In this document: piece by piece, positions 32,461-59,400 of the stretch
Layout: the number at the start of each line of letters is the position of its first letter
Position numbering within the stretch: the stretch's first letter is position 1
IMG/VR virus record: IMGVR_UViG_3300033070_001123
Source: a virus
Lineage: Duplodnaviria; Heunggongvirae; Uroviricota; Caudoviricetes
DNA length: 64,000 nt
Reading direction: 5' to 3' (one strand)
Translations under genes and position numbers: made by a program
Notes under the pieces: generated by a model
The model's input: only the letters and a program-made list of their open reading frames with translations
Databases searched by the model: none
Told to the model about the DNA's origin: nothing

Positions 32461-35400
32461 TTATCTTCTAAAAGTCTGTCTTAGATCCACGTTTGGATCT
32501 TCCTGAGCGAGTTTGTTCGCCTTATCTAACTTGAACAAACTCTGTATGGAATCCTTCAATTCCTCACCAATTTTTCTTTGGTTACTACGCTCAGAGATTA
32601 CTAAAGGCTTTTCTGAACCTTTCGCAACGGTGTCAAGTCCTTTCTTGGAAGCTCCAAAGAGGGCAGTTTCAAGATCCTTGAGGTCAGAAGGCTCGTAACG
32701 AGCAAGCTTCTCTATTTCAGAAGCAAGCTTGTCAACGGAAATCATTCCCGCCTTGAGCTTACGACCCGCAACTCTTGTAGCAGCCTCTTTCTTAGCCGCC
32801 AAGGACTCTGCATCGCCACCAGCAATGACCGTTCCCTTATGCGCCGTTTGCTTTTCAGGCGCATTCTTTTCATTCTTATCATACTTAGCGTTCGTTCCGC
32901 CGCCAGCAGGAATGCTTGGAGCATCCTTCTCAGCCTTCGGTACGCTTACTAATGTTTCTTTTTCATGTCCCATGAAGCTAGAATCTCCAGCTTCAACCTT
33001 GCCAATATCAGCAGACTCCTGAGGAGTTATTGGATTACCGCTCTTTGGATGATCCTTGTTAGCTGCGTATGGCTTTGTATCTCCGTCTTCAGAAACAGGA
33101 GCAGCCTTTTCAAGCTTCTTGTCCGAAGCGGTCTTTGTTGCATTCAAGATTCTTTCAGCAAGAGCAGAAGTTCTAGCCTTGCTAGAAGCAGACTTACCCG
33201 CTCCTTGCGTTCCGCCAGTCATTTCATGCTCCTTCTCTGAGGTATAACCAAGTTCTTTCTCATGACCCATTTCGCCACCGCCAGCCTCAAAGCTAGCCTT
33301 TGGCTTGCTGTTGTCATATCCAGCGTCTTTTTCGCCGCCCATTGTGGCGTCTCCGCTGAATACTTCTGGATCCTTAGCGTCAAACTTTTCCTCATTGCCC
33401 ATAGTTCCGCCGTCCTTAACCTTGCCGAAATCTTCGGTATGGTCTTGAACGTTCTTATGAGTTACTTCCTTGGCAATCTTGCCTTGAGAAGCAAGAACCT
33501 TCATAACGCTGGACAAGTCAAGATTGATTTCGCCGGAGCTAGAAATCTTGCCCTTCCTAAATGCGTTTGTTGCAGACTCGGCCTGAGCCATAAGCTTGAA
33601 CTCCTCTTTATCTTCTGAACCTTCTTCGCTGTCATTCGAGAAGTCGCTAGAAGAATCCTCTTTTTCTTCTGAATTTTCTTCAGAAGGCTCGGAAGATTCA
33701 CCTTCGCCCTCAGAAGATTCGCCTTCAGAAGACTCGCCACCAAACGGATTAGAAGAAGGCTCTTCAACAGAAACCTCAGACTCGCCAGTTTCAGGAGCGC
33801 CTCCCATGTCGCCGCCCTCTGGGGCAACTTCAACAGAAACATCTTCCTTAAGTTCAACTGGGTTTGAGTCAACTACACCAGGCGCTTCTTGAACAGCGTC
33901 TTGAACAGCGTCAAGAGCGCCGCCGACCGCAGAACCAACTTCTTGAGTTGCGTCTACAGCAGTTTCAAGAGCTTGGTCAGCAGCTTGGTCTACACCTTCG
34001 GCAACTTCGCCAGGAAGGGAGATTGTTGCAGTTCCATCAAGAGGAGCGTTGTGATGAGGCTCGGCAGCAGGATTCTCTCCCTTTGCCATATCTATAGCAG
34101 CGTCAAACTGCTCTATAACATCAAGAGGGAGTTCGATTGTAATAGTTCCCGCCATTGGGTCGCCACCACCAAGTTCTCCTCCTACATCCCCTCCAACATC
34201 GCCACCCATATCTCCGCCCATATCGCTTGCAAACGGATCTACGTCGCCTCCAAGTTCACCGCCCATATCGCCGCCCGTGTCTCCCTCAGGAGATGGAACG
34301 CCGTCAGTCGGGGACGGAGGAACTTCAGAACCGCCAGAAAGCTCGTCAGCAAGATGATCTTCAAACTGAGCATACTTAGCCTTGAGTTGGTCGCAAACAA
34401 AGCAAGCTTGCTTCATGGAGAACTTTCTAGAGCGTACAAAATCTTCTACGCAAGTAACCATAAGGTCTTCGTTCTTCCATATAGAAGCGAGCTTGATAGC
34501 AACGTCATTAGCATAAACGCCAGCGGTAGAAAGCTTCTGGCAAACACAGTCTGCAAGATTCTTTCCTTCGCATGGACCGCTCATTGCAAGAGCATTTTCG
34601 CCATACTTACGAGCAATCTTCTCTCGGCAAGTTTCGATTGGGAACTTACCTTCAAATGCTGCTGTCTTCTTGAGGCCCGACAAAACAGAACTCTTAGAAG
34701 CTGTCTTGACAGGAGAAAGAAGACCCTTATCCTTCATAGCCATGATTGCGTCACCCTTATCGAAGAGCATCATGGAATCAAAAGTATCTTCGCTAATACC
34801 AGCGGACTTGAGGGCCTTCATGAAGGCGCTCTTCTTACGACGGCAGCTTTCGCAACCGCGAGTAAGAGGCTTCGCTTCAAATCGCCATTCAGCGAATACA
34901 GCCTTCTTTCCGCCCTTATCTACACCAGCAACATGAACTTCATAAGTAGCGCCTGTATCCAAGCACAAGAACTTATTATTGCTGATCTTCATTACGCTTG
35001 TTGAGCCAGTGTAAGGACTGATAGAACCGAGGCCCCATTCAATACCCTTAGCCTTTGCGTCTTCAGCAGCCTTCTTAAGCATTGCTGGGTTCAAACGAGT
35101 CATAGCAGCAACTGGCAAGCTTGCAGGCTCTTCGGTTTCTGGAAGAGCAAAACCTTCGCCGCCCTCATCGCCACCAAGTCCAGCCTCACCAGCTTCTTCG
35201 CCCTCGCCTTCGCCAGAGTCAAGCAAACCAGGATACTTAGTAATTTCAAGCTCAACCTTATAAGCAAACTCAGCGGAGCAGTTACCGCACTTACCCTTAC
35301 CGTCTAGAACGTCAACGTCGCTAGAACCGCATACTGGGCAAATAGTACCCGGTGGCTTTGGTTGCATATCGCCTTCACCGCCGCCCATCATATCATCTTC

Positions 35401-38400
35401 GCCAGCGCCAAGCTCATCGCCAGGTCCGCTTAAGCTTTCAGCGGCAGGAGCGCCTCCCATTCCGGCGTCAGCGCCAGGCATGGTTGCTCCCATTCCGCCA
35501 GCAGGACCGCCGCCTCCCATACCGCCACCCATCTGTCCGCCCATCATCTGGGCTTCCTTAAGAAGGTTGGCTCTGTTAGCAGAACGAGCAGTCTTATTTG
35601 TTCCTTGAGGCTTCTGCGTTGCAGTCTTGAACTGCCCGCTCAAAACAGAAGCAAAAGCCTTCTTCTCTGCGTCCGAGCAAGATCCCTCTTCCTTGCAGTC
35701 AGCCTCAAAGATTCCAGCTTCCTTGTCCAACTTGACGTTAGTAACAACGAATGGAACTTCGATATGGCTCTTTGCGAAAGTAAAGAGAGCATTCATGAAT
35801 TCTGTTTGATTGTCTGGGCTTACCTTGACATCTTCTGTAAGGGTTCCGCAAATCTTATAAAGACCGTCTTCTGGACGATCAAGTTCAGCAAAGGCTTGAC
35901 GGAAAGCGTCTTCTTTGCTTACAACTGTTTCTTCAGAAGAATCTTCAGTAGAAGCGAGCTTGGTATGAGCCAAAGTCTCAGCAGCAGCAAAAGCCTTCTT
36001 ATCAGAAGCAACAAACTTGATTGCGTCAACAAAATCCTCAGCCTTGAGGTATCCAATGTTATCGCCCATAGAAGCCAAGAGAGCGTCAACGCTTCTAACC
36101 TTGCTACCGCTAGTGGAAGCTACCTTAGCAAAGTAGTTCTTGCGATTTCTTTCAGCAAGACGAGCCTTAACCTTGACAGGGGATGCGTTGATAAGAGCAA
36201 GATATCCAGCCTTGATAGAAGAGAACGGAGAAGAAGAAATCTTGCTTACAGCCGCAGAAACCTCGGCAGGAGTAAGGTTGTAATGAGCAATCGCGTCGGC
36301 AACTGCATTGGAAGCGGCCTTAACCAAATCCTTAGCAGACGAAGCCCAACGAGCAGAATCGGTCTTTCCTTCTGGAGAAGCCTTCTTCTGTTCGTCAAGC
36401 TGTGCTTGAATTGTAACTTCAGGAGCAGTCCACTTATGAGACTTCTGCAAAGACTCTAACTGAGCCTGAGTTGTCTTTTCTGTGTAATCCTTACTAATAG
36501 AAGTAGAAACTCTGCGGCTCATTTCTGTCCACTGAGCTTCGGTAATAACCTCTGGGTAGCTATCCCAACGAGCAATATCATCATGCTCAATCGAATCAAG
36601 CTGAGCTTGGGTAATAACTTCAGGAGCATTACCCTTGCGAAGCTGATTGTCGTCAGAGGTTGTATCATTAACTGGCTTAAGCTCGCCGTCACCGTCGAGT
36701 TGAGCCTGTGTCGTTACGGTTGGAGCCTTGTCTTCTCTAGGGTGAAGAGGGCCAGCATTATCAAGTTGCTTCTGAGTGGTAACTTCCAACTGGGAAGCCT
36801 CTCCTCCAGCTATCTTCGTGGTTTTTTGTGCAGACATATTAACTCCTGATTCTTTCTGATATTGACTTAAAACAATCTTAGCAGCCTCTTGAGGATTTGA
36901 GGAAGCAAGGGCCTTTATTTCATCGCCAAATTCTTCAGCAGAAGCCCAGCTTACAAGCTTATTATCTTTGAACTTTCCGAAAACTAGACCGGAACCTTCT
37001 ACAGTGGCAACAACAACTCTTGTGTCGCCGTTTACAAATTCAGCAATATGTTCAGATTCAGCCACTTCCTTACTCCTTTGTGCTAGCAGAACGATTGAAG
37101 CGCGCAATGCAGAGCTAACACTGGCTAGCTTACTGCTAATATTCTCGCCTTGCTTCAAAAATTCCTTCTTTAATTCTTCAGATGCTCCAACAAAACTTGG
37201 TCTTGTAACACTTCCCAATCCAGCCATTGAGCCAGATTGAGGGCTTCCCTGAGGGGCTGCTTGGGGTTGAGGCGACTGAGTTAAGCTCTGAGCGCCTTGT
37301 CCAACTTGACTTGGATTAGATACTTGCTGAGCAGCGCTTGCGCCTGTCATTGAAGGGTCTAAAGACATAACATTTCCAAGAGCAACAGCCTGCTCTGGAG
37401 GAGACGGAAGTTGGGCGTAACCCATTTCCGTTAGTTCGTCAGTAAGAGATTGAACTTTAGCAAGTTGCTCAACAAGATCGCTTACATAATCTAGCTGAAT
37501 TTGCTGTTTTTGAGCCATCATCGAACGAGCAACATGCTCCATAAGATTCATGGCTTGAGTAAGAGCTTGAAGCTCTGCCTTGCCAGCAGTCTTTTCTAGC
37601 GAACCGTCTTTCATTGTATCAACGGCACCGCTAAGTCTCGAAGCAACCTTCCTCAACTCTTCAATCTTATCAGCAACCTTTGTCTTTACATTATCAAGAT
37701 TGAGAATATCACAAACCAAACAATCATGGCATGCTGGATTTACAACAAATGAATCCTCGATAAACTTGATATCATAATTCCATTCATATACTTTTGCTTC
37801 TTTATGAATAAGTTCGTGTTCTTCGTTCTTTTTCTTGCCATCTAAAGGGCATGGGTCTGTAGGCTTACAAGGGCTATCATGATATTTACAATCATATTTG
37901 CCGCTAATTTTCCTATTTTTACCACCCTTTATATGAGTGCAGAACTCGTCTGCTGTATGGGCTTTATTATGGCAGATTGAACAGATAGAATAAGTAACTT
38001 GAGCGCCCATTGACGTACCAGTAATGTATCCTTCTTCGATACCTCTAGCAAGCCTTGGATAAGCGGCTCTATCAACCATATTGATACAATAAACGCCTTT
38101 AGAAGGTTCGTCATACCAAGAGTGAACAACCTTACCTCTTGCGTTCTCTACATTATCATTTTGATGATTTACAAAGACAGGAACACCAACGAAGGTATGA
38201 GCAGCTTTCTTAAGTTCTTCTTCAGAAAAACAATCGCCGTTATCATTTACTTCGTTTGCCTTAATAGCAAATACCTTAACAAATAGATTGTCTGGATTCT
38301 TCTCAATTGCTGCTTGTATATCAAATCCGCCAAGATCTGTTTTCTTGGTTTTATCAATAGAAGCAACTTTAATACGAGAAGTATTGTAGTAATCCCATGC

Positions 38401-38469
38401 GCCTCCCTTAGGAACATGAAGAGCCTCAACGCTCATCTGAGTATTAGTTTTTGCTCGTTTTTCAAACAT
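32461..38469 (-). CDS. giant prohead protease-scaffold fusion (2002 aa)
   Basis: N-terminal domain with NDNGDCFSEEEL, PVFVNH (His) and ITGTSMG (Ser), as in HK97/assemblin-fold prohead proteases; followed by low-complexity acidic regions, Cys-rich modules and repeats; canonical position between portal and capsid. Confidence 0.8.
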   Translation of the reverse strand: MFEKRAKTNTQMSVEALHVPKGGAWDYYNTSRIKVASIDKTKKTDLGGFDIQAAIEKNPDNLFVKVFAIKANEVNDNGDCFSEEELKKAAHTFVGVPVFVNHQNDNVENARGKVVHSWYDEPSKGVYCINMVDRAAYPRLARGIEEGYITGTSMGAQVTYSICSICHNKAHTADEFCTHIKGGKNRKISGKYDCKYHDSPCKPTDPCPLDGKKKNEEHELIHKEAKVYEWNYDIKFIEDSFVVNPACHDCLVCDILNLDNVKTKVADKIEELRKVASRLSGAVDTMKDGSLEKTAGKAELQALTQAMNLMEHVARSMMAQKQQIQLDYVSDLVEQLAKVQSLTDELTEMGYAQLPSPPEQAVALGNVMSLDPSMTGASAAQQVSNPSQVGQGAQSLTQSPQPQAAPQGSPQSGSMAGLGSVTRPSFVGASEELKKEFLKQGENISSKLASVSSALRASIVLLAQRSKEVAESEHIAEFVNGDTRVVVATVEGSGLVFGKFKDNKLVSWASAEEFGDEIKALASSNPQEAAKIVLSQYQKESGVNMSAQKTTKIAGGEASQLEVTTQKQLDNAGPLHPREDKAPTVTTQAQLDGDGELKPVNDTTSDDNQLRKGNAPEVITQAQLDSIEHDDIARWDSYPEVITEAQWTEMSRRVSTSISKDYTEKTTQAQLESLQKSHKWTAPEVTIQAQLDEQKKASPEGKTDSARWASSAKDLVKAASNAVADAIAHYNLTPAEVSAAVSKISSSPFSSIKAGYLALINASPVKVKARLAERNRKNYFAKVASTSGSKVRSVDALLASMGDNIGYLKAEDFVDAIKFVASDKKAFAAAETLAHTKLASTEDSSEETVVSKEDAFRQAFAELDRPEDGLYKICGTLTEDVKVSPDNQTEFMNALFTFAKSHIEVPFVVTNVKLDKEAGIFEADCKEEGSCSDAEKKAFASVLSGQFKTATQKPQGTNKTARSANRANLLKEAQMMGGQMGGGMGGGGPAGGMGATMPGADAGMGGAPAAESLSGPGDELGAGEDDMMGGGEGDMQPKPPGTICPVCGSSDVDVLDGKGKCGNCSAEFAYKVELEITKYPGLLDSGEGEGEEAGEAGLGGDEGGEGFALPETEEPASLPVAAMTRLNPAMLKKAAEDAKAKGIEWGLGSISPYTGSTSVMKISNNKFLCLDTGATYEVHVAGVDKGGKKAVFAEWRFEAKPLTRGCESCRRKKSAFMKALKSAGISEDTFDSMMLFDKGDAIMAMKDKGLLSPVKTASKSSVLSGLKKTAAFEGKFPIETCREKIARKYGENALAMSGPCEGKNLADCVCQKLSTAGVYANDVAIKLASIWKNEDLMVTCVEDFVRSRKFSMKQACFVCDQLKAKYAQFEDHLADELSGGSEVPPSPTDGVPSPEGDTGGDMGGELGGDVDPFASDMGGDMGGDVGGDVGGELGGGDPMAGTITIELPLDVIEQFDAAIDMAKGENPAAEPHHNAPLDGTATISLPGEVAEGVDQAADQALETAVDATQEVGSAVGGALDAVQDAVQEAPGVVDSNPVELKEDVSVEVAPEGGDMGGAPETGESEVSVEEPSSNPFGGESSEGESSEGEGESSEPSEENSEEKEDSSSDFSNDSEEGSEDKEEFKLMAQAESATNAFRKGKISSSGEINLDLSSVMKVLASQGKIAKEVTHKNVQDHTEDFGKVKDGGTMGNEEKFDAKDPEVFSGDATMGGEKDAGYDNSKPKASFEAGGGEMGHEKELGYTSEKEHEMTGGTQGAGKSASSKARTSALAERILNATKTASDKKLEKAAPVSEDGDTKPYAANKDHPKSGNPITPQESADIGKVEAGDSSFMGHEKETLVSVPKAEKDAPSIPAGGGTNAKYDKNEKNAPEKQTAHKGTVIAGGDAESLAAKKEAATRVAGRKLKAGMISVDKLASEIEKLARYEPSDLKDLETALFGASKKGLDTVAKGSEKPLVISERSNQRKIGEELKDSIQSLFKLDKANKLAQEDPNVDLRQTFRR
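36395..36790 (-). repeat. six peptide repeats (P)-E-V-(T/I)-T-Q-A-Q-L-D in the protease-scaffold
   Basis: EVTTQKQLD, PTVTTQAQLD, PEVITQAQLD, PEVITEAQWT, EKTTQAQLE, PEVTIQAQLD. Confidence 0.85.
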
Positions 38470-40354
38470 TTTCGTTCAAACTCCTAATAATTCTCTTAGC
38501 CAGGCTAGACGCTTGAGCGTCAGGATGATCAGGTCCAACATCTTCAACCGGAGGGCGAAGAGGAGGAGGTTGCTTAATAGGCTTTATCGGATCTCTTCCT
38601 ACAAACTGATTAAACGCTTTGTCTGCTCTTTGAACACCTTTTGATTCTGGACTAAGATTCGGTAGCGGATCTTGTTCAGTTAGATTTCCTTCATTATCTT
38701 CAACAATTCTACCTCCCTCGCCAACGATAATTTTCTTCATCTCTACAACTGCGGCAGAAAGAGAAGGTAATCCGCTTCTAACTTCTCTCCAAGGAGAAAG
38801 GATAAGCTTCTTTTGTCCAAGCTTAGTTTCGTAATATCTTTCGCTAGCCATCATTCTTGGTATAGATATTTGTTTTGCAACAACGACAAATGATTGTCTG
38901 TTCGTAACAACAGAACCTCCCCAAAACTCGGGTTCTTCATTTGGAACGTCCTTATATTGAACCATATCTTGCTTACCAACAGTCTTTGCTTGACCAACAT
39001 TGCGGCCTGTTGAAAAATCGGGACCAGCCATGTAAATAATGAAGCCTTCTAAAGCTGTATGAGAGTTTTGAGCCTTGACAATACCGCCATTCTCGTCAAA
39101 AGAATAACGATCAGTCTTTGTGTCAAGCCATTGTTTCAGTTGTTTCAATGCAGGAACAGAATAAGCAAATTCTTCTTTATTCTTCGGGTTCATTATCTTT
39201 TGAACCGTATTCTCGTCATCTACTGAATAAACAAACTTATATCCGCTTGCAACCTCAGAAACATCAAGGTCTTCACCCTGAGCCTGAGCGGTTACTCTAT
39301 AAACCTTACCAAGCGTATTTTTATTAGCTAGAGAGGTTACTTGTTCTTGCGATAAATAAAGCTTCTCGCCAGTAACTCTTTCAACCCTCTCGCCTGTTTC
39401 TTTGTTAATAGCTGGACGACCGCCTGCTCCATATCTTATCTTTTTCTGAAGATACATTGCGCCTGATTCTGGATCTGCAAAAATTCCCCAAATAAATTTA
39501 GCTTGCTCAGGGCTGTTTTTGATAATCATATCAGCATTATTGACGTAACGTATATTCAAAGACTGAGGGTTGAACTGAACGGCAGCAGCCTGCTCGTCAG
39601 GAACAAGGCCTTCTACAGGAGAGACATAAACAGCGCTACGATTCATAATGATAGGATCATTGAAGAATTTCTTCATCGTAATCGTATTCGTAGTAACGGT
39701 TGAATCAAAAACATTTGTAACGCCATGAACGTTTACAATGCCAAATGTAAAACCCTCGCCAGACGGAACAACTTGAAAGTTTCCATTAGTCGAGTTAGGA
39801 TACTCTTTCCCACCAACATTCTCTTGAATCTGACGGGGTATCTTGTTATATTTTTGCGATACATGATACTGAAGACCATTTGCAGCCAAATCTTGATAAG
39901 CATAGCCAAAAATAGAAAACCAATGCTTAGAACCAATACTCTTGTCTATCTTATTTCCGCCAGAAAAGCCTGAAGCGCTCGAAGGAAGCTGTAAGCCATA
40001 CTCTCTCGCAAACTGCGCTGTCTGTAAAAGCTCAGGACGCTCTCTTTGAAGATCTTTAATCTCAGAATCACCAATCAATCGATCTTCAGCATAAGCAATA
40101 CGAAGCATACCAGAGTATTCGTTTGACCTAGCAGCAGGAAACCTCTTAAAAGCCCTATCGAACTCGGCTATTTGCCTCTGTATACTTTGCTTTACAACAT
40201 CTGGTAACTTAGAAAGATGTTGCTTAAGTCTATTTCTATCAAATATATGAAAATCAAGACTTCGATTCTTGATATTGATAGAGCCAGGCATAGCAGGCAT
40301 ATCCGCCTGCTTTAACAAAAGACTACTAATGATTGACTTTGGATCACTACTCAT
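38462..40354 (-). CDS. hypothetical head-module protein
   Basis: 630 aa; ATGA-coupled; LLKQAD motif near the N-terminus. Confidence 0.8.
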   Translation of the reverse strand: MSSDPKSIISSLLLKQADMPAMPGSINIKNRSLDFHIFDRNRLKQHLSKLPDVVKQSIQRQIAEFDRAFKRFPAARSNEYSGMLRIAYAEDRLIGDSEIKDLQRERPELLQTAQFAREYGLQLPSSASGFSGGNKIDKSIGSKHWFSIFGYAYQDLAANGLQYHVSQKYNKIPRQIQENVGGKEYPNSTNGNFQVVPSGEGFTFGIVNVHGVTNVFDSTVTTNTITMKKFFNDPIIMNRSAVYVSPVEGLVPDEQAAAVQFNPQSLNIRYVNNADMIIKNSPEQAKFIWGIFADPESGAMYLQKKIRYGAGGRPAINKETGERVERVTGEKLYLSQEQVTSLANKNTLGKVYRVTAQAQGEDLDVSEVASGYKFVYSVDDENTVQKIMNPKNKEEFAYSVPALKQLKQWLDTKTDRYSFDENGGIVKAQNSHTALEGFIIYMAGPDFSTGRNVGQAKTVGKQDMVQYKDVPNEEPEFWGGSVVTNRQSFVVVAKQISIPRMMASERYYETKLGQKKLILSPWREVRSGLPSLSAAVVEMKKIIVGEGGRIVEDNEGNLTEQDPLPNLSPESKGVQRADKAFNQFVGRDPIKPIKQPPPLRPPVEDVGPDHPDAQASSLAKRIIRSLNENV

Positions 40355-40794
40355 GCCTTAACATGCTCCGGTATATCTGCATTCACAAGAGACTCTCTGT
40401 TATACGGAACTTGACCCTTTGGAACAGGAGTACCCCATCTTTGACTTGCGTAAATAAGCGCACCTTTCATTGTTGGAAAATACTCTCCATAAGGGCTATA
40501 TGTCTTTGTATCAGGATCTTTTGTAAACTCTTCAATAGGAATCTTTTTGATACCTGCAAAGAAAACCTTACCTACATTATGTTGTATAGAAGGACCAACA
40601 ACAACATAATAAATTGAGTTTGTTGTATAATCATGTCCTTCCCATCTATAGTAAGAGCCAGGACCAACTTGTTCTTCGAACTTTTCCTTAAGGGACTTTG
40701 ACCTTTCTCGGTATATTTCTTCCCACTTAATACCGCGGTCCTTTATTCGTTTACGACCCGCAGTTTTTTCCAAGTTGTAAACTAAATCGTTCAT
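40351..40794 (-). CDS. hypothetical head-module protein
   Basis: 147 aa; starts MNDLVYNLEKTAG; ATGA-coupled to the portal gene. Confidence 0.8.
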   Translation of the reverse strand: MNDLVYNLEKTAGRKRIKDRGIKWEEIYRERSKSLKEKFEEQVGPGSYYRWEGHDYTTNSIYYVVVGPSIQHNVGKVFFAGIKKIPIEEFTKDPDTKTYSPYGEYFPTMKGALIYASQRWGTPVPKGQVPYNRESLVNADIPEHVKA

Positions 40795-43064
40795 CCTTGC
40801 TTAGCTCCATTGTCCGTGATATACTTAGAAACGACACATCCTTCAAAAGGACTAAACCCAACAGGTTTATAGTTCGTATTTTCTCCTGCTTGTGCCTTCT
40901 TGGACAAAGCTTTCTTTTCCTTTGACGCCTCTTCGACTTCTTTACGAACAACTTGCTCAACTTTATCTAAGTGTTCGCCAATAGCTTGTTCAGTAAATCG
41001 CAAAACCCTCCAGCCATAGGAAGCAAGAGTCATATCTCTTTCTTTATCCTTCTGTTTATCTTCAACAGAAGAATGCCACTTTTCGCCGTCTACCTCAATA
41101 TCAACACCAAGCTCAGGAATTGCAAAATCCATAAGATAGAAATTGGAATCGCTTGGAACTGGTTGCTTATACTGAGCAAACAATCTAAAAGGCAACTTCA
41201 TGGATAGAAGTGTTCTATACATCTTTGATTCAGGCTTAGTTAACTGTATAGTTGTTGGTCTTACAGTCTGCATTTCGCTTTCTTTAGCTTTAGGAGCCTT
41301 GCCTCTTCTATAAATCTTCCCGTCCCCTCCGCCTGCGGCTACGCCGGGAGCGCCTCCCATACCTCCGCCCATTCCCCCTCCCATACCTCCGCCCATTCCG
41401 CCCATGCCTCCACCCATGCCACCCATGCCGCCCATACCGCCGCCCATGCCGCCCGTTGGGTCCATGCCAGGAGCGCCGCCCATGCCGCCCGTTGGGTCCA
41501 TGCCAGGAGCGCCGCCCATGCCGCCGCCACCCAGGCCGCCACCCAGGCCGCCGCCGCCCATAAGTTGACCGTTTTGCATGGCTTGTACTTGTTCGTTTCT
41601 AATTCTTTCTGTTTCTAGATCATAGTCCAAATCAAACTCTTCCAAAAGAGTCTGAGCAGAAATTAGACCGCTCTGCTGCATCTGTAAGAACATTTGAAGC
41701 TGATTAGTATTGTCTCTAAGCCTAAGATCTTCCCATTTAACTTTCGGGAACAAATAAACCGTTTCTCCAAATTCTTCAGAAGCCTCTTCATCAATAAAGC
41801 CTTGCATCTTAGCAACAGGAAGGAAAATGTGCTTCTCAATCCATTGAGCAAGCTCGTTTCTCCAAGACTCCAAACGACGGATCATAACCTCAACACCAAC
41901 CTGAGCGGAGTTATAGCCAGCCATCTCTCCATTCAAAAGAGTTTGATTGAGCATGAGACCGTCCAAGATTTCTTTACCAACATATTCAAGTTCTTGATTA
42001 ATGTTGTGTATCTTGCCGCTTGCTCCATACCATTCGTAATCAAAGTTATTATGAGTTACAATGGTAAGATTAGGGTCGTTAGCGACCGCAGCAAGCTGAG
42101 CAGATACGTCCGCAATTGCGTCATCGTCTGCTGGCCTCTCGTCCGAACCAACCTTAACAACTCTAACCGGAAGTATGAGTCTTTCAGCAACAATCCAGTT
42201 TGCTGTCATAAGCTTTGTTTTGTATGCCAAAACAGTAAACAATCTACGAAGAAGAGATTCTCCATAAGTTCCATAAGGGCTTCCGCCATGCTTTACATGG
42301 CTCGTAACTCTATTAGAAAGCAGAATAGGCCTCTTAGCCATAATCTGAACTTTGATGTTATCTGGAATTTGATCATACAAAAACTTAGGTTGCTTTGTTT
42401 GAATAATTCTTTGAAGCTCTTCATCTGGCAAAAGAACAATCTGAGGCTCTTGCGAAATAGGAGTCTTCATTACCTCAATCCAATCTGGATTAAGAACGGT
42501 TAGTTTACTTATAGAGCCGTCAGGGTGATTGCATGGCTCATTCTTTTCAGAATCAATGCCAGTACCCTTACAATGAGGACACTCAATTTCGGTCATTACG
42601 AAAACATCGCCAAGAAGAAAACGCTGATGACTTACCATTCTAAGCCAGTACATCAACTCTATTTTCTCAATAAGCCTCTCGAAGAAACGTAATACGCTCT
42701 TCTTCTTGCATTCAAGTTTTAGACCGTTAATGGGGAACTGCGAGTAAAAATCTATACCAGCAGCAACCTTTGGTTCGTTTTCATAATAGAACCTCGCCCA
42801 TTGATAGACTTCTTTTCTCTTGCTTGCAATCTGCCAATTCTGAGGAGTATGCAAAGGCGAAAAGAACATGGGCTGAGCCATGATAACGTTAGCACCTGAT
42901 CCCGCAAACTGAGCAGCCTTTGTAATTGGAACGCTAACAACGCTAGAAGTAGAATACGGCTTAGCTGTTGCGTCTCCGTCCTTCATAACAACACCCTTAG
43001 CAGAAGCTATCTTACTAACAGCTTGCTTATTCGGGAGTTGCATCTTGATTGGTTTATCTGCCAT
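40791..43064 (-). CDS. portal protein with a Zn-finger insert, Gly/Met linker and C-terminal DUF559/Vsr-like endonuclease domain
   Basis: Portal-like core (ARFYYENEPKVAAGIDFY, PYGESLLRRLF, ELAQWIEKHIFLPVA); CPHCKGTG insert; C-terminal LMDFAIPELGVDIEVDGEKWHS...DKERDMTLASYGWRVLRF. Confidence 0.8.
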   Translation of the reverse strand: MADKPIKMQLPNKQAVSKIASAKGVVMKDGDATAKPYSTSSVVSVPITKAAQFAGSGANVIMAQPMFFSPLHTPQNWQIASKRKEVYQWARFYYENEPKVAAGIDFYSQFPINGLKLECKKKSVLRFFERLIEKIELMYWLRMVSHQRFLLGDVFVMTEIECPHCKGTGIDSEKNEPCNHPDGSISKLTVLNPDWIEVMKTPISQEPQIVLLPDEELQRIIQTKQPKFLYDQIPDNIKVQIMAKRPILLSNRVTSHVKHGGSPYGTYGESLLRRLFTVLAYKTKLMTANWIVAERLILPVRVVKVGSDERPADDDAIADVSAQLAAVANDPNLTIVTHNNFDYEWYGASGKIHNINQELEYVGKEILDGLMLNQTLLNGEMAGYNSAQVGVEVMIRRLESWRNELAQWIEKHIFLPVAKMQGFIDEEASEEFGETVYLFPKVKWEDLRLRDNTNQLQMFLQMQQSGLISAQTLLEEFDLDYDLETERIRNEQVQAMQNGQLMGGGGLGGGLGGGGMGGAPGMDPTGGMGGAPGMDPTGGMGGGMGGMGGMGGGMGGMGGGMGGGMGGGMGGAPGVAAGGGDGKIYRRGKAPKAKESEMQTVRPTTIQLTKPESKMYRTLLSMKLPFRLFAQYKQPVPSDSNFYLMDFAIPELGVDIEVDGEKWHSSVEDKQKDKERDMTLASYGWRVLRFTEQAIGEHLDKVEQVVRKEVEEASKEKKALSKKAQAGENTNYKPVGFSPFEGCVVSKYITDNGAKQG
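41441..41525. repeat. 36-bp tandem repeat (two full copies plus a partial) encoding GGMGGAPGMDPT within the portal Gly/Met tract
   Basis: CGCCCATGCCGCCCGTTGGGTCCATGCCAGGAGCGC repeated directly. Confidence 0.85.
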
Positions 43065-43075
43065 ATATCATCCTG

Positions 43076-43495
43076 TTATAGACCCAAATGATTCGCTGAT
43101 CTCTCGACGTTGGATAAATGATTTTCGTCAACAACTTGAATGTCGTCGTCCGAAATCCTCTTCCTATTTGGTTTCATCGGTTTAACTGCCGGATTCGTTG
43201 TTCTTGGAATCAAAGATTGGGCCGCAGCAAGGACTGGAACGTGAACCTTGTTAATAGGAACACCCCTCATGAGCGTCTCATGAGGGTTTTGGCCTTTTTG
43301 CTCGCCTTGTTGATCTCTTTTTCTTTGCTTAGGAAGCGCTCTTATTTTTGCAATATCCGCTCCGCAGTTAGCGCATACAACAGCAGTCGGAGTGTTATCC
43401 GAACTGCATGTTGGACATACTTTTTCGAGAGCTAGAGGCTTAACTTTGTCTATGGGAGGAAGAGATGGTATCTTAGGAAGAGACTGAGCTATCAC
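43076..43495 (-). CDS. double zinc-ribbon protein
   Basis: CPTC-x10-CANC motif. Confidence 0.7.
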   Translation of the reverse strand: MIAQSLPKIPSLPPIDKVKPLALEKVCPTCSSDNTPTAVVCANCGADIAKIRALPKQRKRDQQGEQKGQNPHETLMRGVPINKVHVPVLAAAQSLIPRTTNPAVKPMKPNRKRISDDDIQVVDENHLSNVERSANHLGL

Positions 43496-44715
43496 TTTTT
43501 TTTTACAGAAGCTTCTTTCCAGTTGTAAGGCTTAGCTTCTATATCTGTTGGCTCATATCCCCTGTCCTCTGCCATCTTCTTTCTTGAAGCTTCCATGCGA
43601 GCCTCTATAGTCGCAAACTCTGGCAAATATGGACGACGACGCTGCCCTGGCAACAACTGCAAATTATTACCTTCTGGAACATTACGGTCTACATCAAACC
43701 TCTTGTTGATATAACCGCCAACCCATTCTCCCTTATCATTACGATAAGGTTGGCTATACTTATCCATTATGTTGCCGCGCCAGAAAGTTTCAAAATCGAA
43801 CGCTCTATCGTCGAAAATGAAGTTATGGTCTCGACCTCTAATCCAACTGTGCCACTCGCTACCGAGAAGTCCTGTATTGCTATGAGGGAAAACTCTTCTA
43901 GATTCTGGACCGAAGTTGATAAATTCACTTCCGCCGCTTCTATTAACACCATATTGAGCTTCTTTCTTTAGATTGTAAGAAGCTTTCTTATTAAGTTTTT
44001 GAGACGAAGCAGCTTTCTTTGCAAACGCTTCAATAATCTTCAATGTTTCATTTACAGCATTTTCTGCTGAAGCTTGAGTATAAGTCGCATCCACTGTTTC
44101 TTCCCCTTGTCCTCTGCCGTGAATGGCTTTGAAAACTTCTGCCGCTATAATTGTCTTGTCGGCAGGATCTCTTTCTGGTTCGTAATATCTCTGAACAGCA
44201 TCTCTAACAAGAGATTGACTATCAGTAGGAGCAGATTGAACTATTTCATTTACAAACTCAGGATTATCCGCATTCTGATCCAACAAGGCTTGAAGCTCTT
44301 GCGGACTATTAAACTGAGACTGCAAATCTGCTTGAGGCTGTTCCATTGAAGGATCAGCCATTGGGTCGGCTGCGGGTTCTCCCATTGGAAGCCCAGCAGA
44401 ATCTCCCATCATTGGGTCTGCTTGAAATTGAGCAACCTTTGCTAAGCTAAAATAAGAAGCCATAACAGGAACTCCGCTAACGTCGTTTACATCAAGTTGT
44501 TCTTGATCAACGCCTTCGATTCCCTGAGAAGCCTCTTCTTGAGCCATTTCTAATTCCTGCCTTAGTGTATCCAAAAAGTTCTGTTGTTCAAACTTTGGCC
44601 TTGTTGGATCAACACCAGGATTGATAGCCTGAAGGTTATTATTGGCTTGCTGAGCAAGTCCAAGATTAGCCTTTTCGATTCCATTAGCAGCAGATGGTCC
44701 TGGCGTTACAGGCAT
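43492..44715 (-). CDS. hypothetical head-module protein
   Basis: 407 aa; contains FSLAKVAQ and YNLKKEAQ. Confidence 0.8.
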   Translation of the reverse strand: MPVTPGPSAANGIEKANLGLAQQANNNLQAINPGVDPTRPKFEQQNFLDTLRQELEMAQEEASQGIEGVDQEQLDVNDVSGVPVMASYFSLAKVAQFQADPMMGDSAGLPMGEPAADPMADPSMEQPQADLQSQFNSPQELQALLDQNADNPEFVNEIVQSAPTDSQSLVRDAVQRYYEPERDPADKTIIAAEVFKAIHGRGQGEETVDATYTQASAENAVNETLKIIEAFAKKAASSQKLNKKASYNLKKEAQYGVNRSGGSEFINFGPESRRVFPHSNTGLLGSEWHSWIRGRDHNFIFDDRAFDFETFWRGNIMDKYSQPYRNDKGEWVGGYINKRFDVDRNVPEGNNLQLLPGQRRRPYLPEFATIEARMEASRKKMAEDRGYEPTDIEAKPYNWKEASVKKK

Positions 44716-44718
44716 TCG

Positions 44719-45495
44719 TTACTCCTTATTTCTTTCGGACAAAACCTTGAACAATCTAGAAGTTGCATCGTCATGAACGCTCTTGTAAGAAGAGTCTTTC
44801 TTCTGATCAACTATACCGTCAACAAATCTGTTAGTCATGTCCTTCGAAGAAGCAACTTTCTTGTTACCAAGATGACTTGCCTTCTTTACTTCTTGCTTTG
44901 CAACCTTCGGGCTAACCCTATTCTCAATAGCTGTTAGTCTATCAAAATTCAAGTTACTATCAAACATGCTAAGTCTATTCGAAGGAACCCATCCCTTGCC
45001 GCTACTCTTAGCAGAAGTAGGATTTACAGAAGAAGACTTTTGAGCAAGGGCGTCAGCGTCTTCGCCAAGCTTCGGACTCATACTTTGCTTATATTCTGCT
45101 TGCTTCTTTTGACGAATTCTATCAGACGAAGCCTTCTCTTCTGCGGTTGCTTCTCTAGAAGAAAGACTTTCCGCCTTCTTTCCGAGAACATCAGAATCCC
45201 AAACAGAGTTATTGCTTTCGCAACCAATCTGTTTTGTTGGACCACCCATATCAGTAATACCACCCTTGCTTGCGCAACGAGAAGGCCTTACACTTGAAAC
45301 ACCGCGAGCAATAGGATTGTTATATTCAGCAACTCTATTCTCTTGCTTAGCCCAAGAACGATCTTTCTCAATCTTCTTGGCCTGCTTCATTTCAGGCTGT
45401 CTCTCATTAACTTCTTTACGATAATCAACCTTCTTATCTGGCGTTCCGAGAAGAGCATCAACAAGGCTTGATTTTTGAGCTTGTTTACGAATCAT
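44719..45495 (-). CDS. hypothetical head-module protein
   Basis: 258 aa; starts MIRKQAQ. Confidence 0.8.
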   Translation of the reverse strand: MIRKQAQKSSLVDALLGTPDKKVDYRKEVNERQPEMKQAKKIEKDRSWAKQENRVAEYNNPIARGVSSVRPSRCASKGGITDMGGPTKQIGCESNNSVWDSDVLGKKAESLSSREATAEEKASSDRIRQKKQAEYKQSMSPKLGEDADALAQKSSSVNPTSAKSSGKGWVPSNRLSMFDSNLNFDRLTAIENRVSPKVAKQEVKKASHLGNKKVASSKDMTNRFVDGIVDQKKDSSYKSVHDDATSRLFKVLSERNKE

Positions 45496-46298: not shown

Positions 46299-46976
46299 TT
46301 ACTTATCAGCGAACATTGCGTCAACGTACTCAGATGGGTAAAGCTTCTTCCAGTAGTTCTTCCATTCATTCTTAGTCTTGGAGTCAAGGTTTGCAATGCG
46401 AACCATTCTACGAGAAGTAGAAGCTTCCTTCTTCTCCTCAGCCTTAGCCTCGCTCTTACCTTCAGACTTCTTAGAGCCTTCGCTACCGTCGCCGCTCGTT
46501 GGAGCGCCGCAACACTTATCAACCTCATGGGTTACGCCCTTATTCTCTGCTGGAATTTCAGAGTTATCAGCCTTCTTCGCAACAGAAGCCTTCTTCTTTT
46601 CGCCTTCTGGCTTGCCGGTATTTGTGCCGCCAACAGGATCCATTTCCTGCTTCTTGACATGCATTTCGCCGTCCTTTTCCTTGCAGCACTCGTCCTTAGC
46701 AACCTTAACTTCCTTCTCAGCAAAAGCGTTGCAGGACTCCTTTTCTGTACCTTCAGCCTTCTCTACTCCCTTGTCGTCCTTCTTCTCTTCATTCTTACCG
46801 AATGGAGGAGCTTTCTTGTCGCCAAGGTTAGCAATATTGGCAGTCTTTTCGGCCTTCTCTGGTGCAGCAGTTGAAGCTGTCTTGGAGAAAGCTACGTTAC
46901 TTGCAGCGAGCTTTTGTACAAATTCGCCGAAGTTCTGGGCCTTACCAGTCGAGATCTTGTTCGTATAAAACTTCAT
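46299..46976 (-). CDS. K/E-rich scaffold-like protein with a C-terminal YWxxLYP motif
   Basis: 225 aa; multiple K-x-A motifs; ends NYWKKLYPSEYVDAMFADK; SD AAGGAG. Confidence 0.75.
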   Translation of the reverse strand: MKFYTNKISTGKAQNFGEFVQKLAASNVAFSKTASTAAPEKAEKTANIANLGDKKAPPFGKNEEKKDDKGVEKAEGTEKESCNAFAEKEVKVAKDECCKEKDGEMHVKKQEMDPVGGTNTGKPEGEKKKASVAKKADNSEIPAENKGVTHEVDKCCGAPTSGDGSEGSKKSEGKSEAKAEEKKEASTSRRMVRIANLDSKTKNEWKNYWKKLYPSEYVDAMFADK

Positions 46977-47057: not shown

Positions 47058-48332
47058 CTAAGGTTTTCTTGGAGCAAACTTACCTTTGTTTCTTGGTTGT
47101 TGCGGACGACCTCCGGGTGCTGCTGGAGGAGTAGTTCCTGGAGTAGCGGGAGCAGGGTTGTTAATTCCTGGTCCTGTAATAGAACTAGAAGAAGGGCCTC
47201 CTGATGGACCGCTAAAAGTCGATCCCGTTGGCATTGTTCCAATAGGATTACCTGCTGGCGCAGCGGGAGCAGCCCCTCCTAACGGATTAGAAGATGCTGC
47301 TGGATTAACTCCAGGCACTGCGGGCGGCGTTCCGCCTGCTGGAGAACCGCTTGGAGCGGCTGGAGCAGAAGGAGCGCCTCCCGATGGAGAACCGCCATAA
47401 TTACCTCTCAGTATAGAATTCAAAGAAGTTAGAGTATTAGGCCAGTTCTGCATTACGCCTTGAATATTTTTTGCCTTTATCAATCCTGAAACATTACTAA
47501 GATGTTGAATCGCTGTTGAAGCTTGTTGTTTTTGCTGAGGAGTTGAATTTGGATCATTCGCAACTGTATTTAGCTCTTGCGATAAAGAAGAAATGTTACC
47601 AGAAAGCTGTCCCCAAGTCTGATTAGCTTGTCCATAAGCTTTCTTGAATTCTTCAAAGTTGCTATTCAATTGCTTAATAGATGAACTTAACTTTCCAGTA
47701 TAAGCCTGATTACTACCCCAGTTCTTAACGCCTTGTCCAACGCCCTTAAAAAAGTCCATTATACCAGCTTCTTTTACCATTTCTTCAGCAGCGGCTGTAA
47801 GCTTTTCAGCTATTTCTTGGTTAGAAACAAGTCTAGACGCAATATCCATGATTTCATTGCTTGCGGAAATCATAAGCTCATTTGGTTCATTTGCAACTTC
47901 TTCAATAGAAGCATAAACAGCAGAACCAATATCTAAACCTTCCGCAACCTTCTCTTCAACCTTGCTAGCAATCTTTGCGTTGACTTCTTGAGAGAAAGCA
48001 TGAAGCTCAGAACCAACCTTAATGTTACTTTCTGAGCCTGCGTATTTGTCCCACTTAGAGCCGTCATTGTTCAATGACTCAACGTATTCTTTATGGCATT
48101 CAGTCCAAACCTGTTGAGCAGACTTATTTGGAGAAGAAGTTCTCTTTTGCCTATAGCAATTACCCCAACATCTGGAGTTTCTAATAGCATAGCCCTGTAT
48201 ACCAACATACTGAGCCGTTTTGACATCAAAAGTCGTATTTGCAACCTTATCAACCTTATCTGCTATAGCTCGTAAGCCTTGAGCGTCAAGCGCTTCTGCT
48301 GCTTCAACAAGCAATCGAATGATATTATCCAT
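47058..48332 (-). CDS. hypothetical head-module protein (coiled coil, Pro/Gly tail)
   Basis: 424 aa; FDVKTAQ followed by a Cys motif RCWGNCY...TECH; MVKEAG. Confidence 0.8.
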   Translation of the reverse strand: MDNIIRLLVEAAEALDAQGLRAIADKVDKVANTTFDVKTAQYVGIQGYAIRNSRCWGNCYRQKRTSSPNKSAQQVWTECHKEYVESLNNDGSKWDKYAGSESNIKVGSELHAFSQEVNAKIASKVEEKVAEGLDIGSAVYASIEEVANEPNELMISASNEIMDIASRLVSNQEIAEKLTAAAEEMVKEAGIMDFFKGVGQGVKNWGSNQAYTGKLSSSIKQLNSNFEEFKKAYGQANQTWGQLSGNISSLSQELNTVANDPNSTPQQKQQASTAIQHLSNVSGLIKAKNIQGVMQNWPNTLTSLNSILRGNYGGSPSGGAPSAPAAPSGSPAGGTPPAVPGVNPAASSNPLGGAAPAAPAGNPIGTMPTGSTFSGPSGGPSSSSITGPGINNPAPATPGTTPPAAPGGRPQQPRNKGKFAPRKP

Positions 48333-56497: not shown

Positions 56498-59400
56498 TTA
56501 TATTCCTCCCCTTCGAGGGTACGATGCTCTTTGTTCCAATTTCCTAGCAACCTGCTGTCCAGGTCCAACCCCATAAGGCTGTCCAGACATAGATCTCCAT
56601 ACTACATCATTAGCTCCCTGTACTGGTAAAGAGACTAATTTTCCTTGTGGAAGTTTGTTCAACTCTTTTTCAACGCAATTATAACAAGCACCCGCAAGGG
56701 CGTCTACAATATCGTCTGTTGTTATGTCTCCATCTTTCCTTGGGTACACCTTATATCCGCTATCAAGCCATTTTCTTTGAAGATTTTTCATTTCATTCTT
56801 AAGAAGAATATGATTTGGTATAAAAAGCTTGCCTTGTACAGCTATTTGATACAAATTGTCATAAATAAGGTTCTTGTATTGCTTGTTGTATGGCGTCATT
56901 TTAGTTGGAACGCCTCTTTTTCTAAGCTTGGCTATGCTTTCTTGACTATTAAAGTGGTCATAAGTAACAACACCAAGACAGAATTTTGTATTCAAATCAG
57001 CAACATACTCATCAACTTCCTCAACTGATATTGGTTTCCCCGGCAAAGGCGACCAATACTTAATATGATCTACAACAATTCTCCACTCTTTTCTAGAGGT
57101 TGGTTGATCAAAGAAAACCTCTTTATGAGCAAGTACCAAAGCGTAATTGTGGCTTGATGTCGCAGGATCTAAATGAGCAAAGTAATAAATACCAGGAACC
57201 CCTCTATCCCTAAACTTCAAAACCTTATCAGAGAAGCACTTTTCAACAACTTCTTCTGGAAAGAAGTTTTCACCAGCCGTACCCGAAAACTCCGCTCCAA
57301 ACTCCATTCGGAACTTTTCTTCGGGCATACTAGGAAAGGCCTGAATAAGAGCTTCTTTTGACTGCATTGGATTCACTTGCCATGTAGCCGCTCTACAAAC
57401 GAGTCGGTGGTCAACCTCTACATGATTCTGATACAAGTCATAGAAGATGCCTTCCTTACCTCTTGGAGTAGAAAGACAAATAATCTTGCCGTCATAAATC
57501 TTGTCAAACTCTTGTTGTCCATTAGCGTCAAGAACAGGCTTGCCTTCCGCGTCAACCCTTGGAACTTTCCTAATATAGGTCTTTACAGCAGGAGCGAGCG
57601 AGTTGAAAATAGCATCGCCTGAAGAAGATCCAGCCGTATTTTTGTAAAGACCAATTTCGTCGAGCAACAAGACGTAGCAAGAAATACCTACCAAGCTGTC
57701 TGAGTTACTATGTCCTGATCGAACAACAATAGAACCCAAACCAGGAGCAAACCCCTTAGCAACCAACTCTTCATTCCTTCGTTTATCTTCGGGAGTCAAG
57801 AAGTGGATTGCGTCCGCAGTAATACCTTCTGGTAAAACCTTATCCTTAAAGTAATCGCTATTGAGAACCTTGTCCTTAATTTCTCGGAACAGAATCTTTG
57901 CCTGTTGAGTCGAGTTTGCTATTGTAAGAATGGTAAACGGAGTTGCCATACCAAGCTTATAGACGGCGTAGGGATTACCGCCAGGACACTCAAGAAGTCT
58001 CATTGCTTCGTAAAGAGCTATGATAGATGTAAGGAAGTCTTTTCCGCTATTATGACAAATAAAGCCATTTGAACAGAAATTCTGTAAAGATGGGTCCGAA
58101 GAAACCATCAAATCAAAAGTTCTTTTCGCTCCAATCTTTTTGATAGATACAATCGGTGAAAAGATAGGCGAGTCGCTAACCTTTTCAATATCAACATTAT
58201 GAGCAATCTCTTGAACTGCTTCATCTTTTCCTACAAAACCGATCTCGTCAATAAATCGACGAACACAGGAGTTTTTGCTTATAACCAAAATATGCTCTGG
58301 CTTAGAATTGATTAGCTTTGATTGAAAAGTTGAAAATACACCAAACCTTGACAACAAATGCTGTACTTGCTTAGTTAGCTGTAGACTCGAAAAAGAAGCC
58401 TCAATTTTACATGTGAAACGATAAGTCTTTGTGTAGGAAATCTCTCCGTCACAACTAAAAAGAGACTTCAAATAAGCTACAACAATATTTTTGGGCGAAG
58501 AAAAGATCCTTGACGGAACAAACTTCTGCGGACTTGTTTTATTCTTCAAACCGTTTTTGTCTAGAAGCGTAATAGCATTATTTTGTTGAACCTTTGTTGC
58601 CTTTTGAGAATAAACGTAAGTGTATTTACGCTCGTCTTCAGACTTTATGTTATGATTACTTGCTGGTTCTATTTTAGAATCAGCGCAATATTTCGTTATT
58701 CTTAGCTTGAAATCTTCAAAAACTTCTCCATTACTGAGCGACGTAGCAAGATAAGCTCCAACCGAATCGCAAGAACCGCTGCTCAAATAACCAAGAATAA
58801 CAGCCTCGTCTTCAGATAGCTCCGTAGAACTACCAAAGAAAGGCTGATAAGACGCTAACGCTACTTTATCCTTTGGTTTCAAATCTTTGACATGAACCCA
58901 TCCTGCTTCTGTCAAAAACGGATGATTATCTGTTGCTTCTATTTCGTGTCCAGAAATGGTTTGAATCTTATAGACATCTCTAACGCCTTGAAATATCAAG
59001 TTGCAATTGTCTATTGAAACCATCTTCTTGGCTCGTTCGTCAAACGTCCAAGACTCTAGCTTTGTTTTTCCATAATTCCAAAGCTCGCCAAGTGTCCAGT
59101 TTCTTCCTGTTTTGATATCAATGATTTCGCTGTTTTCAGAAAGACATCTTCGGCCCCAAACAAGAACAAGCTCTCTAAACTGATTGCCTGATTTCCATTT
59201 ATCTAATAACGCTCCATTGAGAGGATCGTTTAGACCGTTTTTGTCAATTATGTCAAGATCTTCTGGGGTTAGCTCTAAATCTTCATTTCCATCGCTACCC
59301 CTATAAAAGCACTTAAGTATGAGCTTTTGTATATCGTAAAGACTAACAGGAGGGTTAGCATAAGGTAGTCCAAGAAACTTAGGACTCTCAACAAACTCTA

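Follow-up and report, generated by a model that had tools for sequence, protein, structure and literature searches.

Architecture of the Portal-Nuclease Gene

The gene considered here belongs to a tailed virus (Caudoviricetes) represented by the IMG/VR record IMGVR_UViG_3300033070_001123, of which a stretch of 64,000 nucleotides, hereafter the window, was analyzed. The gene, window:40791-43064(-), is a single open reading frame (ORF) of 757 amino acids (aa) without stop or frameshift. It encodes a portal core, a disordered Gly/Met linker, a basic motif and a DUF559/Vsr-like nuclease domain extended by a 42-aa tail. The gene and its parts are the following:

40791-43064 (-), whole portal-nuclease gene, 757 aa, stop codon at 40791-40793
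42861-43064 (-), disordered N-terminal region, aa 1-68; predicted local distance difference test score (pLDDT) <50
41559-42860 (-), portal core, aa 69-502; Pfam, PHROG, AlphaFold2 and Foldseek
42525-42581 (-), CxxC...CxH zinc-knuckle insert within the portal core, aa 162-180; translation checked
41310-41573 (-), Gly/Met-rich disordered tether, aa 498-585; pLDDT <50, tandem DNA repeats
41241-41309 (-), basic junction, aa 586-608, isoelectric point (pI) 11
40920-41240 (-), DUF559/Vsr-like EDxHD nuclease domain, aa 609-715; Pfam, profile, AlphaFold2, Foldseek and conservation
40794-40919 (-), C-terminal tail, aa 716-757; end of the long helix, K722-KAQ motif, then a predicted beta-hairpin

The initial annotation, made from the sequence alone, had described the segment 40791-41570 as the nuclease-bearing part of a portal fusion. 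These coordinates correctly span the linker, the nuclease and the tail, and the in-frame fusion is real. A stop or frameshift separating the nuclease from the portal had been named as one of the observations that would undo it; none is found in the 757-aa ORF. The frame is also open, with zero stops, in a 98%-identical copy of 759 aa carried by a 333-kb IMG/VR record (G001), and it is uninterrupted in the IMG/VR loci L004-L016, which derive from independent assemblies. Moreover, a single ORF with the same layout is present in 120 of the 120 best database homologues, themselves from many independent assemblies. Because the same open frame occurs in the 98%-identical record and in all of these homologues, a sequencing or assembly artefact is excluded.

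The Portal Core

The core is recognized both by sequence and by predicted structure. Pfam Portal_Mu (PF06074) matches aa 248-426 with 33.1 bits (cut-off 23.9), and the PHROG portal family phrog_16240 is matched with an expectation value (E) of 1e-37. In a full-length AlphaFold2 model computed with 74 homologues, the core (aa ~70-500) reaches a pLDDT of ~90, the linker (aa 502-585) stays below 50, and the C-terminal domain is again confident. Foldseek searches with the core model retrieved 143 solved portal chains at E<=1e-3, among them those of lambda, T4, HK97, G20c and HFTV1, and the top matches were all portals. The core ends in the last helix of the crown (aa 481-502). As for its genomic setting, the gene belongs to a head-morphogenesis module: the protease-scaffold gene lies 2.3 kb downstream and the large terminase gene (TerL) 13 kb upstream, all on the same strand, and the order of the head-module genes is kept in relatives. 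From its sequence and its model, the protein is best read as the structural portal of a giant tailed phage that is a distant relative of Bacillus phage G.

Solved portals are dodecameric rings located at one vertex of the capsid, with the C-terminus of each subunit on the capsid-interior side. By analogy, the proposal that the C-terminus lies inside the head is supported by the topology of all solved portals and by the match of the core model to the portal chains. The zinc-finger insert of the core (CPHCKGTG), which had been called unusual, is indeed present at aa 162-180. Over 74 sequences, C162, C165 and C178 of the CPHC...CxH pattern are found in at least 90% and H180 is invariant. The insert is therefore real but not unusual, since it is conserved family-wide and is no oddity of one phage.

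The Nuclease Domain

The DUF559/Vsr fold suggested for the C-terminal domain is confirmed by Pfam, by profile comparison and by Foldseek. Pfam DUF559 (PF04480) matches aa 609-709 with 37.3 bits (cut-off 20.6), and with 40.6 bits in a scan limited to the C-terminal part. Modeled alone with AlphaFold2, the domain has a pLDDT of 87. Its best fold matches are the catalytic domain of I-Bth0305I (3R3P; template modeling (TM) score 0.76, E 8e-5) and the DUF559 protein 3HRL (TM 0.79), with further matches to the nuclease domains of PvuRts1I and AbaSI and to Vsr. The sequence profile of 69 homologues also matches 3R3P (E 2e-6) and 3HRL (E 2e-5). A Vsr mismatch-repair endonuclease proper was considered and ruled out, as the structural zinc site is missing and the Pfam Vsr model (PF03852) stays below its cut-off (12.1 bits vs 27; E 0.19). 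The zinc site is absent because the nuclease core contains no Cys (aa 609-715).

The active site of the Vsr/"EDxHD" enzymes comprises Vsr residues E25, D51, H64, H69 and D97, together with a conserved acidic residue at position 62 (Taylor et al., 2011; PMC3239194). Using alignments and this published mapping, the equivalent residues of the portal domain are E612 (Vsr E25), D646 (D51), E657 (position 62), D659 (H64), H664 (H69) and D673 (D97). In alignments of 69 and 74 sequences, in which the nuclease domains are 34-75% identical to the query, E612, D646, E657 and H664 are invariant, and conservation of D659 and D673 is 90% or higher. The mapping also accounts for a feature that is puzzling otherwise, the invariant "LTKPE" with which the domain begins. 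Thus, the active site is apparently complete and under strong purifying selection, and the domain is predicted to be a catalytically competent nuclease of the EDxHD type, derived from the PD-(D/E)xK enzymes. Neither a NUMOD nor any other DNA-recognition module was matched by Pfam or PHROG in aa 570-757. The prediction of a nuclease homodimer from two copies gave a score of 0.00, which was counted neither for nor against dimerization.

The Tether and the Basic Motif

The tether (aa 498-585, 88 aa) is composed of 57% Gly and 16% Met and is encoded by imperfect tandem repeats of 9, 12, 24 and 36 nucleotides. A Gly-rich tract is a constant feature of the close homologues (120 of 120), in which its size varies from 20 to 98 aa. 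The tract is followed by a conserved basic motif, K(I/V)Y(K/R)(K/R)GK(A/G)PK, corresponding here to K583-I-Y585 and the junction; then come 10-15 variable residues and the nuclease. Internal starts in the Met-rich linker, which would yield a free nuclease, find no support, with only 2 of the 15 in-frame ATGs (aa 502-569) having any Shine-Dalgarno-like sequence at usable spacing.

The protease-scaffold polyprotein also possesses a Gly/Met tract that resembles the portal tether, at 35437-35553 (-). Judging from the two sequences, a like-with-like contact of these tracts during incorporation of the portal is conceivable.

Distribution, Origin, and Inteins

When only the portal core was used as the query, an exhaustive search gave 1388 relatives, of which the best 150 representatives at 50% clustering were examined. 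The DUF559 domain is present in 120 of the 120 nearest homologues and in 114 of the 150 representatives. The 36 others either are truncated, ending in the core, in an intein or in the linker, or are complete portals at <=~36% identity. Among the complete DUF559-less portals that were scanned with Pfam, none has another recognizable C-terminal domain; the C-terminus is a Gly/Met/Pro-rich tail in some of these portals and a helical extension in others.

A maximum-likelihood tree was computed from the first 520 residues of 26 intein-free DUF559 portals, 7 complete DUF559-less portals and gp14 of phage G, used as the outgroup; intein-bearing and truncated sequences were left out of this core-only tree. 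All DUF559 portals form one clade, supported by an approximate likelihood ratio test (SH-aLRT) value of 100, and the distribution is accounted for by a single state change. The survey of homologues thus indicates a conserved rather than a patchy fusion, with a single gain and, in complete members, no loss. On the basis of these sequences, the nuclease was appended once to a portal lineage that apparently had disordered C-terminal tails before, and has been kept in every complete member of a deep clade. A free-standing DUF559 gene that could represent the precursor of the fusion was found neither in the window nor in the loci L017, L019 and L021 nor in the first 50 kb of phage G.

The portal family is also an intein hotspot, with representatives of up to 3003 aa in which the core is divided into up to six pieces (homologues P0122-P0235; loci L015 and L016). 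In 13 distinct proteins, the DUF559 profile is split at position 68/69. A regular-expression check showed that 9 of these 13 contain a canonical intein (Cys1 ... His-Asn/Cys+1) located exactly between E657 and residue 658, in the E-x-D-G motif. Characteristically, inteins are found in important proteins, at those functional sites that are best conserved. Their insertion directly after the E of E-x-D-G therefore gives independent support to the idea that the catalytic motif is under strong constraint. The prohead-protease gene is likewise split by inserts in L015-L019.

The Head Module

Besides the portal-nuclease gene, the following features of the head module are relevant:

32461-38469 (-), prohead protease-scaffold polyprotein, 2002 aa; phrog_18299 head maturation protease at aa 60-186
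40351-40794 (-), 147-aa ORF downstream of the portal
43076-43495 (-), 139-aa zinc-ribbon protein directly upstream of the portal
56498-59521 (-), TerL, 1007 aa; four TerL PHROGs, LAGLIDADG intein at aa ~141-491 (intein Pfams)
32461-60054, head module, in which the genes bearing K-x-A-[S/Q] include 32461-38469, 43492-44715, 44719-45495, 46299-46976 and 47058-48332

The motif K-x-A-[S/Q] occurs 43 times in the window (11.9 expected), nearly always in genes of the 32-60 kb interval; outside it, the ORFs located below 32 kb contain only 4 copies, in two proteins. The protease-scaffold polyprotein bears 15 copies (2.5 expected, z 7.8), the 407-aa protein encoded upstream of the portal 5 (0.3 expected) and the portal itself 3 (0.4 expected). 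Two of the portal sites, K18-IAS (43002-43013) and K49-AAQ (42909-42920), are in the disordered N-terminus, where "TKxAQ" belongs to the family consensus, and the third, K722-KAQ (40890-40901), is found just past the long helix of the nuclease. With shuffled controls that ignore the shared ancestry of the homologues, a looser motif, K-x-A-[SQNGA], is enriched in the N-terminal region (45 of 53 homologues; 15.5 in shuffles) and in the C-terminal tail (42 of 57; 9.3 in shuffles), but not in the linker-nuclease junction (3 of 56; 8.4 in shuffles). The bias of K-x-A-[S/Q] toward head-module genes is what one would expect of a recognition code for a prohead protease, comparable to LxE in T4. K-x-A-[S/Q], which flanks the core-tether-nuclease unit and is absent from the tether, can be proposed as a candidate site of the prohead protease. 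It offers a testable candidate cleavage code for an uncharacterized prohead protease.

TerL owes its length of 1007 aa to a LAGLIDADG-type intein that interrupts the ATPase domain. Its C-terminal region, as read from the translation, shows the usual acidic motifs of an RNase-H-like terminase nuclease and resembles the Atlas clusters Terminase_6C / TerL_nuclease (score 0.96). Pfam and PDB sequence searches with the C-terminal half matched nothing. Comparison of phage G gp1 and of Pfam Terminase_6N/6C with the window, with G001 and with four related records (one of 494 kb, 98% complete) also gave no match; TerL was identified through PHROGs. The PHROG matches, the translated motifs and the Atlas matches provide a lead that TerL keeps a nuclease region of its own.

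Two small genes border the portal. The 147-aa ORF overlaps the portal stop codon, is translationally coupled and has no Pfam or PHROG match. In relatives it is conserved like the portal (48-98% identity), down to a portal identity of 61%. The possibility that it encodes an obligate or clade-wide partner or inhibitor was rejected, as the gene is absent beside a DUF559-bearing portal at 40% identity. On the other side, the 139-aa zinc-ribbon protein keeps its position while its sequence diverges fast (32-97% identity).

Possible Role of the Tethered Nuclease

We tentatively propose, from sequence and predicted structure, that the domain is an active nuclease or nickase that stays tethered to the portal inside the head and acts in the prohead or early in packaging. 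The crown of the portal continues into the ~85-aa disordered Gly/Met tether, then into the basic motif and the nuclease. Given the topology of solved portals and the T4 gp20 fusions to green fluorescent protein (GFP), the ring of 12 subunits would bring up to 12 nuclease domains into the head. In T4, GFP can be fused to the C-terminus of about half of the 12 portal subunits while prohead function is kept (PMC9958956). Each domain could roam roughly 10 nm around the inner opening of the channel for DNA, or up to ~30 nm with the tether stretched to its full length. Because no sequence-recognition module accompanies the domain, its target would be set by its position on the portal rather than by DNA sequence, with the help of the basic motif. 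Should the K-x-A-[S/Q] motifs be protease sites, the protein would lose its N-terminal end and the C-terminal hairpin at maturation, possibly unmasking the enzyme, and the nuclease would stay attached. Its substrate would be nucleic acid located at the portal's inner face, and its task could be, for example, quality control, the clearing of unwanted nucleic acid or the nicking of DNA.

A more specific form of this proposal is a gate activated by maturation. In such a gate, removal of the hairpin by the prohead protease at K-x-A-[S/Q] would unmask 12 EDxHD nucleases tethered around the inner portal opening, which would cut misplaced nucleic acid or nick the incoming genome; host or satellite DNA, trapped RNA, and mismatched or unmodified DNA are possible targets. 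We consider this version speculative and rather unlikely to be correct in its details. If true, it would represent a previously unknown step of head assembly in tailed phages, confined to a large clade of giant phages.

Several points weigh against retention of an active enzyme in the head. A permanently active nuclease near the packaged genome looks dangerous, and would need substrate restriction, auto-inhibition or steric exclusion. The cleavage code on which trimming depends is inferred, and its shuffled controls take no account of common descent. The fusion was found in no cultured phage of a 50,697-record collection, and no nucleotide-level match was obtained. Sister lineages whose genomes are just as large, phage G among them, manage without the domain, so that it cannot be a general requirement of giant heads. 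Finally, the published view of other portal/MuF-enzyme fusions is that of delivery into the host (Iyer et al., 2017; PMC5512222).

This last view leads to the alternative that survives best, a packaged and then released effector. Here, the portal would serve as a carrier for capsid targeting, and the nuclease would be cut off the tether at maturation and ejected together with the DNA to act against host DNA, RNA or defenses. The portal/MuF-fused PBECR RNase, 2H and InPase enzymes (PMC5512222) and the MuF toxins (PMC5576092) have been interpreted in this manner. The phage has a prohead protease gene, and its head proteins give the impression of extensive processing. However, K-x-A-[S/Q] is found neither in the tether nor in the junction and, across homologues, is if anything depleted there. 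In addition, a simple cleavable cargo needs no conserved tether of 40-98 aa, just 12 copies would be delivered, and no neighboring gene that could be an immunity-like partner is kept throughout the clade. Release therefore appears unlikely, although it is an explanation to be kept in mind.

A role in the cytoplasm, before or at assembly, is less probable still. By analogy with T4 endonuclease VII, of which the fusion would be a covalent counterpart, unassembled portals or prohead rings would act on replicating, branched or host DNA. The T4 gp49 resolvase binds the portal and frees motors stalled on branched DNA (PMC9958956, citing Golz and Kemper, 1999; Dixit, 2011). The C-terminus of the portal, however, faces the interior of the capsid, whereas branches stall outside, at the terminase. 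Moreover, Vsr/EDxHD is not known as a resolvase fold, and a folded domain of ~18 kDa is unlikely to traverse the channel.

It is also quite improbable that the domains act mainly as DNA-binding anchors, which would hold the first-packaged end or organize the spool together with the basic motif, cleavage being incidental or absent. The junction is basic (pI 11) and conserved, one end of the T4 DNA appears fixed near the portal (PMC9958956), and phage G as well as some sister portals have disordered C-terminal tails without nuclease. Nevertheless, the catalytic residues are conserved over deep divergence and the catalytic motif is an intein hotspot, whereas a pure binder is expected to lose some of these residues.

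The idea of a homing-type endonuclease, domesticated or still selfish, lodged in frame within an essential gene has very little likelihood. Its appeal comes from I-Bth0305I, the closest solved relative, which is a phage homing endonuclease, and from the heavy invasion of the portal gene family by inteins. However, the domain was gained once and lost in no complete member, the linker and the basic motif are conserved along with it, and it has neither a NUMOD or other DNA-recognition domain nor bounding splice motifs, the inteins being separate insertions. The captured passenger suggested by the initial annotation is thus contradicted by a domain that is universal in a deep clade and has no flanking intein or intron ends. 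Least credible of all is a substitute for the terminase nuclease that would make the headful cut: the nuclease does sit at the packaging vertex and, in model phages, a full head is sensed by the portal, but TerL is present (56498-59521) with the usual acidic motifs in its RNase-H-like C-terminal region, which weakens the headful processing role first considered. Moreover, if the cut were made on the channel's inner side, the DNA end would be poorly positioned for attachment of the neck.

The domain is therefore best regarded as neither a released effector nor a mobile element. Portals, which belong to the best-studied machines of phages, are regarded as passive channels and sensors, and DNA cutting is assigned wholly to the terminase. 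That a large environmental clade of phages of 250-500 kb keeps an apparently active portal nuclease would imply an enzymatic step so far unrecognized, in assembly, in genome quality control or in infection. The fusion would also represent a natural example of the loading of an enzyme into a capsid in exactly 12 copies, and it offers a minimal EDxHD nuclease without recognition domain.

Comparison With Known Systems

The nearest cultured relative is gp14 of phage G (Bacillus/Lysinibacillus phage, Donellivirus gee), which is 29% identical over aa 58-472 and matches the same Pfam Portal_Mu. This protein (L003:12336-14282) has 648 aa and ends in a disordered Gly/Pro/Ala/Ser tail of ~150 aa, without nuclease, and it branches outside the DUF559 clade. 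Because gp14 has a tail but no folded domain, long disordered C-terminal tails seem older than the nuclease fusion.

On the nuclease side, I-Bth0305I (3R3P), the prototype of the EDxHD homing endonucleases, shares the residues of the active site, among them the additional acidic one at Vsr position 62. However, I-Bth0305I is intron-encoded, carries N-terminal NUMOD repeats, forms a stable dimer and makes double-strand breaks, whereas the portal nuclease has no recognition domain and its distribution is not that of a mobile element. E. coli Vsr (1VSR/1CW0) and the DUF559 protein 3HRL have the same fold, and the equivalents of D51, H69 and D97 as well as a W-H dipeptide are conserved. Vsr has in addition a zinc site and a mismatch-repair context, and the portal nuclease has neither.

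At the portal vertex of T4, endonuclease VII (gp49) is also a nuclease associated with the portal protein gp20. It is, however, bound non-covalently, has another fold, is located outside and acts on branched DNA. The C-terminal gp20-GFP fusions of T4 illustrate that portals tolerate extra domains, but these fusions are artificial.

The closest architectural parallels are the portal/MuF effector fusions, in which a protein of the head vertex carries a C-terminal enzymatic domain and is loaded into the capsid (Iyer et al., 2017, PMC5512222; Jamet et al., 2017, PMC5576092). Vsr/DUF559 is not mentioned in the article on "polyvalent proteins" (Iyer et al., 2017; PMC5512222), and no description of a portal-DUF559 or portal-Vsr fusion was found in the literature searched, where most subscription journals fell outside reach. 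The cargo described so far consists of PBECR RNases, 2H, InPase and toxins, is polymorphic and is predicted to be injected, whereas the portal-DUF559 fusion is fixed clade-wide and probably tethered. Compared with the known portal/MuF fusions, the present one thus differs by its cargo domain, by its fixation throughout a clade and, probably, by retention of the enzyme rather than its injection.

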